Virus record (IMG/VR): IMGVR_UViG_3300029288_000072
Location: 64,001 to 128,000 of that record
DNA from: a virus
Taxonomy: Duplodnaviria > Caudoviricetes
Length of the DNA stretch: 64,000 bases
Direction: 5' to 3' (one strand)
In this document: positions 99 through 3,454 of the stretch, in pieces
Layout: each line of letters begins with the position of its first letter
How positions within the stretch are numbered: position 1 is the stretch's first letter
The notes under the pieces: model-generated
Database searches by the model: none
Told to the model about the DNA's origin: nothing
What the model saw: the letters and a program-made list of their open reading frames with translations, nothing else
Translations under genes and position numbers: made by a program

Positions 99-365
99 AT
101 GCGGAAACAAAAGAATAAACCAAAACGTTTTAAAACCTATTTGGAATATTTAGAATCGTGTCCAGGAAAGAAAGAATATTATACGCATTTTTCCAACCAA
201 AAAGAAGCAGATGAATTTGGTGAGGGATTACGTCAAAATCTTTGTAAAGAACTTGAATGTGGATATTACGAACTAGACACATTTGTTGAGGTCAGAATTT
301 CTCAATTAGCAGTAAGATGTTATTTTGTGAAATATTCTAAAGAGGAATCTCTTAGTTTAGTTTAA
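99..365 (+). CDS. hypothetical protein
   Basis: 88-aa ORF preceded by AGGA and AATAAATA (86-93). Confidence 0.6.
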   Translation: MRKQKNKPKRFKTYLEYLESCPGKKEYYTHFSNQKEADEFGEGLRQNLCKELECGYYELDTFVEVRISQLAVRCYFVKYSKEESLSLV

Positions 366-1587
366 TAGATACTAGATAATCTGCAATTTCGTCATATAAT
401 TTTGCTGAATCTGGGCTATATATTATAGCATTAGATTCTACTACCCATCCAGCACTAGGATTATCAATATCACTTTCCATTGTAACTAAATGAGGAAATC
501 CTATTATTATTTTTGTTCCATTATCATTTGTATCAAAAAACAATGATAAATCATTTTTTAAAGCTAGATCCATAGAAATTTTTAAACCCATTCCAAAATT
601 ACTATTATTTTCTTTTGTTGTAAAACATGTATTAAATAATTTATGTTTGTTTTCTGAGGAGATTCCAGGACCATTATCTTCTATTACTAAATAAAATGGA
701 CTTGCATAACGTTTTTTACCAAATGGACCATAAACATGCGGTTTTAAACTTATTGCTGTATTCTTTTTATATGTTTTAATACATCTCAATTTTAATGATG
801 GTTTATAATTTTGTTTTGTTTTATTTAACATATCATATGAATTATATATTGCATCGCCTGCATTTTTAAATACATTTATTAAAATTCGTGATAAGTCATT
901 TGTATTCATTGGAACATGAATACCATCAAAATCTGGTGAGCATGCATATGAAATAGAAGAAAATACTTTCATTGTTCTTGAAAATGATGGTGCGGTGGAA
1001 ATAATTTTATTTAAATATGGTTGTAATTCTATTATTTTTAATTCTTCTGCATTTTTAGATGATACATATCTTCCATATTCTGTTAGATTATGTATACAAG
1101 ATTCAATTATTTTTACTTGTTCATCAATTGTTTTTATTCTATCTTTAATATTTTTTATCATTAAAATATTTTCAGTATTATTTGAAATTAAATTAAATAT
1201 TAATTTTAAATCATTTAATTGTGCAAGAGAACAAGAATTTATAACTGCTAATGGGGATCTGATTTCATGACTTATAGTAAAAATATGTTCATCATACATG
1301 TTTTCAAGGGATCTTTTGTATTTTAATGATAATTGTTCAAAATCAAGATTTTTTTCTCGTACACAATTCATTTTAAATTTTCGTTTTTGATTATTTGTAA
1401 ATAATGACATTACTAAAGAAAATATTAAGAAATATAACAATATTGATGCGACTTTCAGATATAATGGAAAAATAAATATCATGTTTATTATAACAAATAG
1501 ACATGATACAAATATTATAATACTGGAAAATATTTTAATATTTTTAAAATATTTTTTTATATGGTCATAACATGTCAAATGGGTCAT
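352..1587 (-). CDS. membrane sensor histidine kinase (HisKA + HATPase_c)
   Basis: Two N-terminal TM helices; H-box SHEIRSPL, N-box NVFKNAGDA, G1 EDNGPGI, F-box LFNTCFTTK, G2 NFGMGL. Confidence 0.93.
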   Translation of the reverse strand: MTHLTCYDHIKKYFKNIKIFSSIIIFVSCLFVIINMIFIFPLYLKVASILLYFLIFSLVMSLFTNNQKRKFKMNCVREKNLDFEQLSLKYKRSLENMYDEHIFTISHEIRSPLAVINSCSLAQLNDLKLIFNLISNNTENILMIKNIKDRIKTIDEQVKIIESCIHNLTEYGRYVSSKNAEELKIIELQPYLNKIISTAPSFSRTMKVFSSISYACSPDFDGIHVPMNTNDLSRILINVFKNAGDAIYNSYDMLNKTKQNYKPSLKLRCIKTYKKNTAISLKPHVYGPFGKKRYASPFYLVIEDNGPGISSENKHKLFNTCFTTKENNSNFGMGLKISMDLALKNDLSLFFDTNDNGTKIIIGFPHLVTMESDIDNPSAGWVVESNAIIYSPDSAKLYDEIADYLVSIKLN

Positions 1588-2047
1588 TTTCTATTATTTG
1601 TTTTTCTAATAAAAATTTATTTTCTAATACGGATTCTAACCATGATATAACTCTTACTATATTTGGTTTAGGAATTACTATTGCATCTCCTTTTGATTCT
1701 GATGCTAGTGCTTCTGCTTTTTGACGAGCGGCATAACTTTTTTCGACACCAGTATAAATGCATAATTGTGGTCTTAATGAAGCATTAAAATCTACTATAA
1801 ATTTATAAAGATCAATTCCTGTATGACCATTAAATACCAAATCGAATATACAAATATCAGGAATAAATCCACCTTTAACAAATGTACTACCATGTTCATA
1901 TGCATGTTCTGTAAATGCTTTATTTATGGTAATATTATTTTGTGATATTCCGTATTTAGCAAATGTATTTAAGATATTTTGTTCTATTGTTAAACAAAGA
2001 TCCCCATTATCATCTGCAATTAATACTCCGATTTTTTTGTCTGACAT
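1565..2047 (-). CDS. single-domain response regulator (CheY-like receiver)
   Basis: VLIADD acidic pocket, CIFDL phospho-acceptor Asp, IYTG, IPKP; RBS AAGGGG; overlaps the kinase start. Confidence 0.88.
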   Translation of the reverse strand: MSDKKIGVLIADDNGDLCLTIEQNILNTFAKYGISQNNITINKAFTEHAYEHGSTFVKGGFIPDICIFDLVFNGHTGIDLYKFIVDFNASLRPQLCIYTGVEKSYAARQKAEALASESKGDAIVIPKPNIVRVISWLESVLENKFLLEKQIIENDPFDML

Positions 2048-2056
2048 TTGTTCCCC

Positions 2057-2641
2057 TTAGAAGAATATTTTAAAAATAGCCTTGATACATGTTGCGATAG
2101 GTGCCCAGCCAAAAATTGATGCAAATAACATTAAAAAGAACAATGTAAATATAAAAAATTTAGATGCTGGAGGGGTGAATAATAATTTTATTAATGCACC
2201 CCGTTTACCACCAACAGATGTTGCATATTTTTCTACCTTTCGTATAAAAGTTTTTTCATTTAATCCTCTTTCTATTATTAATTCATTTAATGTTTGACTA
2301 AAATTTTCTTTAGTAGTTTTCAATTCATTTATATTTGTTGAATACATTTCGTATAGTTGAGCATATTCTTTTTCTAATTCTTTTACTTTATTTTCCGCAT
2401 TTACTTTATTTTCCGATAAATCATTATATCTTTTTTCTATTTCTTCAAATGCAATTTTTTGATGTTCTAAAATAGCCTGTAAATTCTTTATTTTTTTATT
2501 TCTGACACTAATAGCATCAATAGCATAAACATTATTACCTAACATATCTTTAGATGCTTGTAACATGTCCATATTAGCATTAGATTTTAACTTAGAATCT
2601 GTCATGTAAAACCTCTTTATAACACTATTTATATTAATCAT
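2057..2641 (-). CDS. coiled-coil protein with C-terminal membrane anchor (likely start 2605)
   Basis: Heptad-rich core and hydrophobic FFIFTLFFLMLFASIFGW; GAGG RBS before ATG 2605; first gene of the kinase operon. Confidence 0.7.
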   Translation of the reverse strand: MININSVIKRFYMTDSKLKSNANMDMLQASKDMLGNNVYAIDAISVRNKKIKNLQAILEHQKIAFEEIEKRYNDLSENKVNAENKVKELEKEYAQLYEMYSTNINELKTTKENFSQTLNELIIERGLNEKTFIRKVEKYATSVGGKRGALIKLLFTPPASKFFIFTLFFLMLFASIFGWAPIATCIKAIFKIFF

Positions 2642-2643
2642 GC

Positions 2644-2671
2644 TTGACTTTTGTTTCTTAGTAGGTATAAT
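2644..2671 (+). promoter_or_regulatory. sigma70-like early promoter TTGACT-N16-TATAAT
   Basis: Near-consensus boxes followed by AGGAG RBS of the 2690 gene. Confidence 0.75.
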
Positions 2672-2689: not shown

Positions 2690-3454
2690 ATGCGATTTAG
2701 TCATTCAAAACTTGAAATAGCACGCAAATGCATGAAGCAATTTCACTACAAATATATATTAAAATATCCAGTATTAGATACAGAACCAACCGAGTTTGGA
2801 AACTTAATTCATGAAATAGCACAAAATTATAAAGGTTCTGGAAAAAAGGAATTGATGTGCTTATATGAAAAATATAGACCTAAATATAAATTTGAGTCTA
2901 AAACATATAAAAATAAAATTAAACTTGCATTAAAAAATATACATGACTTCTGGCAAATAAATTTAAAAAATCAAAAATACGAACCAGAACAGGAAGTAAC
3001 AGAAAGTTTAACCGAATCTATATCATTAAATGGAAAAATAGATGTAATCATATTTAATGATAATAAAGTCAGAATTATAGATTATAAAACAAGTAAGACA
3101 GACAAGTATTCAGATCATACAAACCAATTGGCAATGTATAAAATACTTGTAAATAAAAAATACAATATACCATATGAAAATATGAGTTGTGAAATTGTGT
3201 ATCTTTCTATGGATGAAGTAGATAAATCCGGAAAACATATATTAAATGAAGGATATAATAATATTGTTAGGGAATATGATGTTGATGAATCTGATATTGA
3301 TGTATTAATAGAAGAAATTGAATCAGTTAAACATAGAATAGAAAGAGCAGAAAAAAATAATATTTGGAGAGCAAATCCTACGTGGTTTAATTGTACATAT
3401 TGTTCATTTAATGAACATTGTGATGAAAAATATAAAGATAAAAAAGACTCTTGA
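2690..3454 (+). CDS. PD-(D/E)XK Cas4/RecB-like exonuclease
   Basis: S-x-S...C, GNLIH, GKID, IIDYKTS, QLAMY, C-terminal CTYCSFNEHC (Fe-S type). Confidence 0.9.
   Translation: MRFSHSKLEIARKCMKQFHYKYILKYPVLDTEPTEFGNLIHEIAQNYKGSGKKELMCLYEKYRPKYKFESKTYKNKIKLALKNIHDFWQINLKNQKYEPEQEVTESLTESISLNGKIDVIIFNDNKVRIIDYKTSKTDKYSDHTNQLAMYKILVNKKYNIPYENMSCEIVYLSMDEVDKSGKHILNEGYNNIVREYDVDESDIDVLIEEIESVKHRIERAEKNNIWRANPTWFNCTYCSFNEHCDEKYKDKKDS

Follow-up and report, generated by a model that had tools for sequence, protein, structure and literature searches.

Can a phage of the virulent type carry a signalling circuit of its own, and what would such a circuit consist of? Bacteria rely chiefly on two-component signalling to sense; virulent phages are regarded as following fixed programmes, with interference in host systems at most, and to our knowledge no such circuit is known there. 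The question was raised by three genes at one end of a 64,000-nucleotide (nt) stretch of viral DNA (the window), which covers bases 64,001-128,000 of the 198,442-bp IMG/VR virus record IMGVR_UViG_3300029288_000072 (CheckV completeness 84%). An initial annotation had read these genes as a complete, phage-encoded kinase-receiver pair with a membrane coiled-coil partner. Our analysis indicates that they very likely form a functional phage two-component module in which the coiled-coil protein is the partner of the receiver, and that they probably represent a working phosphorylation module that is specific to one phage lineage and made late in infection. The features concerned are the following.

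352-1587, minus strand: histidine kinase (HK), 411 aa; two N-terminal transmembrane (TM) segments, a helical linker of ~40 residues, DHp (H107), CA and a C-terminal extension
1565-2047, minus strand: single-domain receiver (REC), 160 aa; quintet D12, D13, D69, T99, K127
2057-2605, minus strand: coiled-coil protein (CC), predicted to be tail-anchored, 182 aa from ATG 2605; the listed reading frame reaches 2641
2626-2633, minus strand: TATAAATA, a sequence match to the T4-type (gp55) late-promoter motif

The three minus-strand open reading frames (ORFs), listed as HK 352-1587, REC 1565-2047 and CC 2057-2641 (194 aa), are as tightly spaced as had been claimed. CC and REC are separated by a gap of 9 nt, with a Shine-Dalgarno sequence, AAGGGG, ahead of REC, and the last 23 nt of REC overlap the start of the kinase gene, which suggests translational coupling of the two. 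Because ATG 2641, the listed start of CC, lies upstream of the TATAAATA box at 2626-2633, and ATG 2605 sits behind a Shine-Dalgarno sequence, AAGAGG (2612-2617), the true start of CC is most likely ATG 2605 rather than 2641. Within the overlap (1565-1587, minus strand), the same 23 nt encode in two frames the end of REC, N-D-P-F-D-M-L-stop, and the start of the kinase, M-T-H-L-T-C-Y-D. The kinase N-terminus MTHLTCYD was considered as a conserved feature in its own right and rejected as a side effect of overlapping the codons of the REC tail in another frame, since the tail, DPFD(L/M)L in the family, is kept where the kinase gene does not overlap REC or is absent.

Profile comparisons place the kinase in the HisKA class. 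The window protein matched Pfam HATPase_c at 30.2 bits (cut-off 26.4) and HisKA alone at a sub-threshold 16.2 bits, and a profile of its family (19 members) matched the DHp and CA of the T. maritima kinase HK853 with an E value of 1e-14 and the H-boxes aligned. The residues H107-E-x-R-x-P112 (H107-E-I-R-S-P112 in the window), N238/N242, D304-N-G-P-G308, F318 and G332-x-G334 are invariant in the 19 family sequences, which are 32-52% identical to the window protein. A C-terminal extension of ~45 residues carries a conserved S-x-D-S-x-x-L-Y motif. HK has no recognisable sensor domain, and the ~40 residues between TM2 and the H-box contain neither HAMP nor PAS. PADLOC returned no match for either HK or REC, its matches for CC were mere coiled-coil noise, and an NCBIfam scan returned nothing beyond far-sub-threshold kinase matches.

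The receiver belongs to a family of 37 clusters, all of ~160 aa, of which 34 match Pfam Response_reg weakly (best E 1.6e-4). In agreement with the initial description of a pair with intact boxes and catalytic residues, D12, D13, D69, T99 and K127-P128 are invariant in all 37 REC sequences. An AlphaFold2 model of REC (pLDDT 86.8, pTM 0.83) displayed the (beta-alpha)5 topology, and all its top Foldseek matches were receiver domains (probability 1.00, target TM-scores up to 0.78), including AdeR, CheY, DctD, RssB, Spo0F and PhoB. Judged by its modelled fold and its catalytic residues, REC is a receiver, and a very divergent one. The family adds invariants of its own: T46-x-H48-A49...H52-G53 in the beta2-alpha2 loop, an alpha4 surface formed by E102, R108, A111, E112 and S116, and a C-terminal tail, D155-P-F-D-M-L160 in the window, that is invariant as DPFD(L/M)L. 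No longer or fused form of REC was found, which is weak evidence, and a scan of IMG/VR with the REC profile returned no relative.

The pair thus described resembles a HisKA kinase with its cognate regulator, as in HK853-RR468 of T. maritima. The H-box HE(L/I)R(S/T)PL, the N, G1, F and G2 boxes and the order of DHp and CA are shared, as are the D-D-D-T-K quintet and the (beta-alpha)5 fold of the receiver, and here the kinase and receiver genes are adjacent and overlapping. Unlike that system, the trio belongs to a T4-like phage and stands behind a late promoter, the kinase is without sensor, HAMP or PAS, and REC scores below the Pfam cut-off, lacks an output domain and has the extra invariant motifs and the C-terminal tail.

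A search for the trio in related phages identified nine distinct loci from different samples and assemblers (L002, L003, L004, L007, L012, L013, L014, L015 and L016, on contigs of 5.9-379 kb). In 9/9 a divergently transcribed PD-(D/E)XK nuclease gene is followed by CC and REC, and the kinase gene then follows REC in 8/9. The exception is L004 (2320-2799), joined by a 38-kb contig of sample 3300050821 with the same REC; there CC and REC retain all invariants, no kinase gene is adjacent, and the next gene lies on the opposite strand. Even the most distant relative, on the 379-kb contig, has a CC that aligns with that of the window (31% identity, E 2e-20). The dN/dS ratio was 0.15 for REC and 0.17 for HK, so that by sequence comparison the trio is conserved and under purifying selection. 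A candidate fusion of REC and kinase in L006 was discarded as an artefact of N bases in the contig.

These data bear on the possibility that the trio is a piece of host DNA, a chimera of assembly or a non-functional remnant in decay. The rarity of such genes in phages, and nothing more, speaks for this explanation, which we regard as extremely unlikely. The same arrangement recurs in nine independent assemblies, the GC content equals that of the flanks, the phage late promoter is conserved, dN/dS is ~0.15, the catalytic residues are invariant, and there is no close cellular homologue (best match outside the family, E 4e-4). The synteny in nine loci, the dN/dS ratios and the shared flanks together argue strongly against a chimera or a recently acquired host fragment. 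The flanks common to the relatives comprise HNH, RlaP, NAD-dependent ligase, NAD salvage and RNA-repair genes. Beside the trio in L013, L014 and L015 (for example, L014 12276-16381), genes for a NAD-dependent DNA ligase, a tRNA-ligase CPD domain, NUDIX, PTH2, NAD synthase and NAPRTase form an NAD+ salvage and RNA-repair block on the opposite strand. In the window's own genome, the matching position is taken by a 649-aa ORF (G000:C1:62135-64084) that runs convergently towards the kinase gene.

That the genes are phage-encoded, as first proposed, is borne out by the 198-kb virus record itself and its T4-type homologues, in addition to the conservation described above. The record encodes a homologue of the T4 late sigma factor gp55 (E 7e-13), as well as homologues of the gp43 polymerase, gp32, the gp41 helicase, UvsX and the gp5 baseplate hub. 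Because of these homologues we assign the record to a T4-like phage, and to a distant one, its gp41-like helicase being at most ~30% identical to that of any cultured phage; by the same kind of evidence, the label of lytic jumbo phage is plausible. DNA and protein searches with the region, HK, REC and the neighbouring nuclease found no match among 50,697 GenBank phage records. The GC content is ~25-35% throughout, with the composition of the trio the same as that of its flanks. The gp43-like polymerase and the gp55 homologue of the record (G000:C1:173398-173560, minus strand, and 180490-181044, plus strand) end in ..IEDIEDLFA and ..KDDDLIFGA, respectively. Acidic-hydrophobic C-terminal tails of this kind bind the sliding clamp in T4. 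A gp45 homologue was not found in the 84%-complete record with T4 gp45, PF02916 and PF09116 as queries.

What, then, is the third protein? CC was modelled as a single 93-residue helix (25-117) followed by a C-terminal TM segment (147-165) and an amphipathic end; as modelled, CC is tail-anchored with its N-terminal end facing the cytoplasm. The TM segment of the first description is therefore present, and its placement changed, with the start moved to 2605 and the membrane segment at the C-terminus. In ten orthologues the invariant residues cluster at the distal end of the helix (A31, R35, N36, I39, L42, H48 and E55, plus R/K59), and an invariant G166-W167 closes the TM segment at the membrane. 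A profile search of 1.84 billion representatives returned only 36 clusters of 62-226 aa (full-length ones ~160-226 aa), none of them fused and all confined to the clade. Comparison with the PDB gave generic coiled coils only, and the look-alikes in the ESM Atlas all scored <0.9 and were uninformative. On the strength of these searches, CC belongs to no known family.

Since L004 suggested that REC and CC are the core pair, we chose REC with CC(1-140) for complex prediction, in one job with three runs, three controls and our own alignments. The pair reached an ipSAE of 0.70 (runs 0.71, 0.68 and 0.70), compared with 0.00 for the best of the three controls; a mark of 0.70 is reached by 58/80 solved complexes and 2/110 mismatched pairs, counts that are only rough here because the alignments were our own. 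The runs shared at least 91% of contacts, with a partner pLDDT of at least 79. The predicted interface sets REC alpha1 (14-30), the beta4-alpha4 loop (100-101) and beta5-alpha5/alpha5 (127-134) against CC 37-63, takes in the invariant H48 and E55 and the conserved R59 of CC, and has the CC helix running antiparallel to REC alpha1. The tail, the alpha4 face and the beta2-alpha2 motif of REC lie outside it. This model supports binding of REC to CC. Together with the synteny of CC in 9/9 loci, the predicted binding upholds the claim that the membrane coiled-coil protein belongs to the system. As a partner, it is predicted to bind the receiver, and L004 argues against the narrower role of an accessory of the kinase alone.

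The alpha1/alpha5 face is the surface by which receivers meet DHp, HPt and phosphatase partners, as in HK853-RR468, Spo0F-Spo0B and CheY-CheZ. Similar to the Spo0F-Spo0B/HPt relays and CheY-CheZ, the prediction has a stand-alone receiver, REC, resting with its alpha1/alpha5 active-site face against a long helix of CC, on which there are an invariant His and an acidic/basic pair with i, i+4 spacing (E55, R/K59). In CheZ, D143 and Q147 have the same i, i+4 spacing. E55-x3-R/K59 of CC lies at that end of the predicted interface which is nearest the active site, without an amide residue and without sequence similarity to CheZ. By extrapolation from the contact pattern, H48 would occupy the alpha1/alpha5 groove, with E55 and R59 at the active-site end. 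CC has no detectable similarity to Spo0B, HPt, DHp or CheZ and is predicted to be anchored in the membrane by its tail; the contact pattern does not put H48 at the Asp, and CC has Arg/Lys, not Gln/Asn, at position 59. A bolder reading is that this tail-anchored protein, unrelated by homology to HPt, DHp and CheZ, serves as the direct phospho-partner of REC in a new viral phosphorelay, either as a membrane-anchored His acceptor (H48) or as a cap or phosphatase acting through E55 and R59, and that a virulent T4-like phage thereby takes a phosphorylation-based decision late in infection, for example, when to lyse, by a circuit of its own; we hold this to be doubtful.

A different role for CC would be that of an accessory co-sensor to an intramembrane-sensing kinase; CC would then perceive the state of the envelope by TM-TM contacts, and REC would act elsewhere. 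LiaF accompanies LiaS, and BceAB accompanies BceS, as kinase accessories. The initial annotation had stressed a kinase with almost no extracytoplasmic loop, and in the window this is accurate: the hydrophobic segments at ~18-40 and 46-64 of HK are separated by a loop of ~5 residues (PLYLK). HK and CC are here both membrane proteins of one operon with almost nothing exposed outside the membrane, and their weak hhalign match is confined to TM segments, all of which would suit a co-sensor. The TM pair is present in the kinases of the window, L002, L003, L012, L013 and L014. However, the orthologues of L007, L015/L009 and L016 (approximately a third) lack any TM segment and start 7-43 residues before the DHp, even though CC keeps its anchor there. 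Because of these orthologues, membrane anchoring of the kinase is, as far as the sequences tell, not a conserved property of the system, and sensing within the membrane fails as a property of the family. In addition, L004 retains CC and REC without an adjacent kinase, the most conserved part of CC is the membrane-distal tip predicted to bind REC, and neither an ABC transporter nor a LiaF-like gene was found. We consider a co-sensor role for CC quite unlikely.

The comparison with LiaFSR and BceRS-AB accordingly goes only so far. The window kinase shares with them two TM segments, a loop of ~5 residues and a small membrane protein in the same operon; unlike in those systems, about a third of the orthologues do without the TM pair, the predicted binding partner of the accessory is the receiver, and there is no DNA-binding regulator or transporter. 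In the TM-less kinases (L015 8437-9606, L009 808-1977, P0048 and P0049), a short N-terminal C-x-x-C-P motif replaces the membrane anchor.

The timing of the preferred reading, a two-component module with CC as the partner of REC, comes from the promoter. On the minus strand, TATAAATA stands 20 nt upstream of ATG 2605 and 8 nt upstream of AAGAGG, and it occurs within a few tens of nt upstream of the likely CC start in the window and in 9/9 relatives (10/10 loci), against a chance expectation of ~0.01 per 60 nt. In five related loci the copy ahead of CC is the only plus-strand one in 7-16 kb. Genome-wide, 11/25 minus-strand copies sit 5-45 nt upstream of Shine-Dalgarno-ATG starts, compared with 0.64 at random. 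The operon is co-oriented with structural genes (fibre, baseplate). Given TATAAATA upstream of CC and a gp55 homologue encoded by the phage, late transcription of the gp55 type is the best reading of the operon. The motif is also rarer than chance in the window, with 17 copies compared with 29 expected and 13/17 on the minus strand, a scarcity that fits selection against stray late promoters. On the opposite strand, a near-consensus sigma70-type promoter (2644-2671, plus strand; TTGACT-16-TATAAT, 11/12) precedes the divergent PD-(D/E)XK nuclease gene (2690-3454). A single 48-bp intergenic region thus accommodates, on opposite strands, an early-type promoter and part of a late-type leader.

How could the module operate? 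We infer phosphotransfer, a direction of signalling, an input and an output along the following lines. From the gp55-type late promoter, CC, REC and kinase would be made as one transcript. The kinase, a complete HisKA/HATPase core with no sensor domain, would autophosphorylate on H107 and pass the phosphoryl group to D69 of REC. REC would dock by its alpha1/alpha5 face on the invariant membrane-distal tip of a CC dimer, in competition with the kinase DHp, and the contact pattern would set E55 and the basic residue 59 beside the active-site loops of REC, with H48 in the alpha1/alpha5 groove. By binding REC at its tip, CC would thus read, hold or reset the phosphorylation state of the receiver at the inner membrane. 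REC would keep its alpha4 face, its beta2-alpha2 TxHA..HG motif and its DPFD(L/M)L tail available for another target. As to the role, our best guess is that a late membrane-linked step such as lysis is timed or gated; lysis timing by the trio, taken as a claim of its own, seems unlikely.

Several observations weigh against this model. REC scored 12.3 bits against Pfam Response_reg and fails the cut-off of 30.2. Sensor and periplasmic domains are missing from both the kinase and CC, so the kinase may be constitutive. To judge from the L004 lineage, the kinase is not strictly obligatory at the locus. In the predicted complex, H48 of CC contacts REC 17-24 and 130 and not the active-site loops or D69, and the REC-CC score may in part reflect a learned docking of helices on receivers. 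Comparison of CC with the kinase DHp gave an hhalign probability of 0.7%, the weak alignment covering TM segments only. Pfam Hpt had no match in the genome, and neither an Hpt nor a second intact receiver was found in the 84%-complete record. Finally, the late promoter fits a late function, yet the trio has no holin or other lysis gene linked to it: T-holin gave no match, and the only lysozyme-like gene lies ~72 kb away.

The surfaces of REC that the predicted CC interface leaves unused also invite another explanation, in which the kinase and/or REC act mainly on two-component proteins or other machinery of the host and CC is only a tether. REC would then be a phosphate sink, or an adaptor that reaches, for example, the clamp, a protease or the division apparatus by its DPFD(L/M)L tail. 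The invariant acidic-hydrophobic tail and the conserved surfaces outside the CC interface are consistent with such a target, the polymerase and the gp55 homologue of the phage have acidic-hydrophobic C-termini as well, and the presence of REC and CC without an adjacent kinase in L004 suggests that another phosphodonor may serve. However, ..DPFDML differs from ..EDLFA and ..DLIFGA, the gene at the gp33 position lacks a tail of this kind, searches of the record yielded no gp45 homologue, and the tight coupling of kinase and REC in 8/9 relatives points to a cognate pair. We rate action on the host as distinctly unlikely. A sliding-clamp role for the REC tail in particular was considered as a candidate and, the tail being only loosely like those of the polymerase and gp55, is neither supported nor excluded.

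The neighbourhood of the trio recalls the cRec domains, divergent receiver-like domains found in jumbo phages near NAD+ and RNA-repair genes, "never" with a histidine kinase and often fused to Nudix (Iyer et al. 2021, PMC7824862, PMC9503650). REC is likewise a divergent receiver-like domain in a large phage near such genes. Could it be a cRec-type phosphoesterase of a counter-defence neighbourhood for NAD+ and RNA repair, and not a signalling receiver? Its strong divergence would allow this, and the related flanks hold cRec themes (NAD-dependent ligase, RlaP, tRNA-ligase CPD domain, NUDIX, NAD synthase, NAPRTase and RNA ligase). Unlike cRec, which by its authors' definition does not occur with a histidine kinase, REC is unfused and its gene shares an operon and overlaps with a kinase gene; the NAD and RNA neighbours are on the other strand, and the adjoining nuclease is served by a sigma70-like promoter of its own. 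Two members of the phosphorylation quintet, T99 and K127, are invariant, and a search with the REC profile detects nothing related in two phages said to carry cRec, rV5 and Serratia BF, a weak negative. The identification of REC as a cRec enzyme is very unlikely by our estimate.

With a signalling receiver thus preferred, the trio can be set beside what is known of kinases in viruses. Histidine kinase genes do occur in viruses: the temperate C. difficile phage phiCDHM1 has agrC, and the Ectocarpus virus EsV-1 has hybrid kinases. Such genes are recognisably of host type, lack a cognate stand-alone receiver plus a novel partner, and are not part of a T4-like late operon; the likeness to the trio is limited to a virus-borne kinase gene. 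A generic PAS-HisKA kinase query matched 97/50,697 "phage" records, the best of which were bacterial contigs or unannotated fragments, so genuine phage kinases are, roughly speaking, rare. The open-access literature yielded no described phage-encoded cognate two-component system. The HisKA kinase class and the receiver fold are already known; new here would be a two-component system in the late operon of a virulent-type phage, with CC as a new third component.

If the model is correct, large T4-like phages measure something in the last phase of infection and act on the result. The trio would then provide a small system, of only three proteins, in which to study the timing of late events by a phage. 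It also presents a receiver family with an unexplained docking tail, and CC may be a new class of receiver partner.

Elsewhere in the genome, an 84-aa ORF (G000:C1:40072-40326, plus strand; L025 1489-1743) matches the first half of Response_reg with an E value of 3e-5 (ILIVEDS...FLDHDL). It stops after approximately alpha3, has no C-terminal remainder downstream and adjoins a 365-aa TnpB-like gene on the opposite strand. This ORF may be a second receiver gene truncated by the TnpB-like element.

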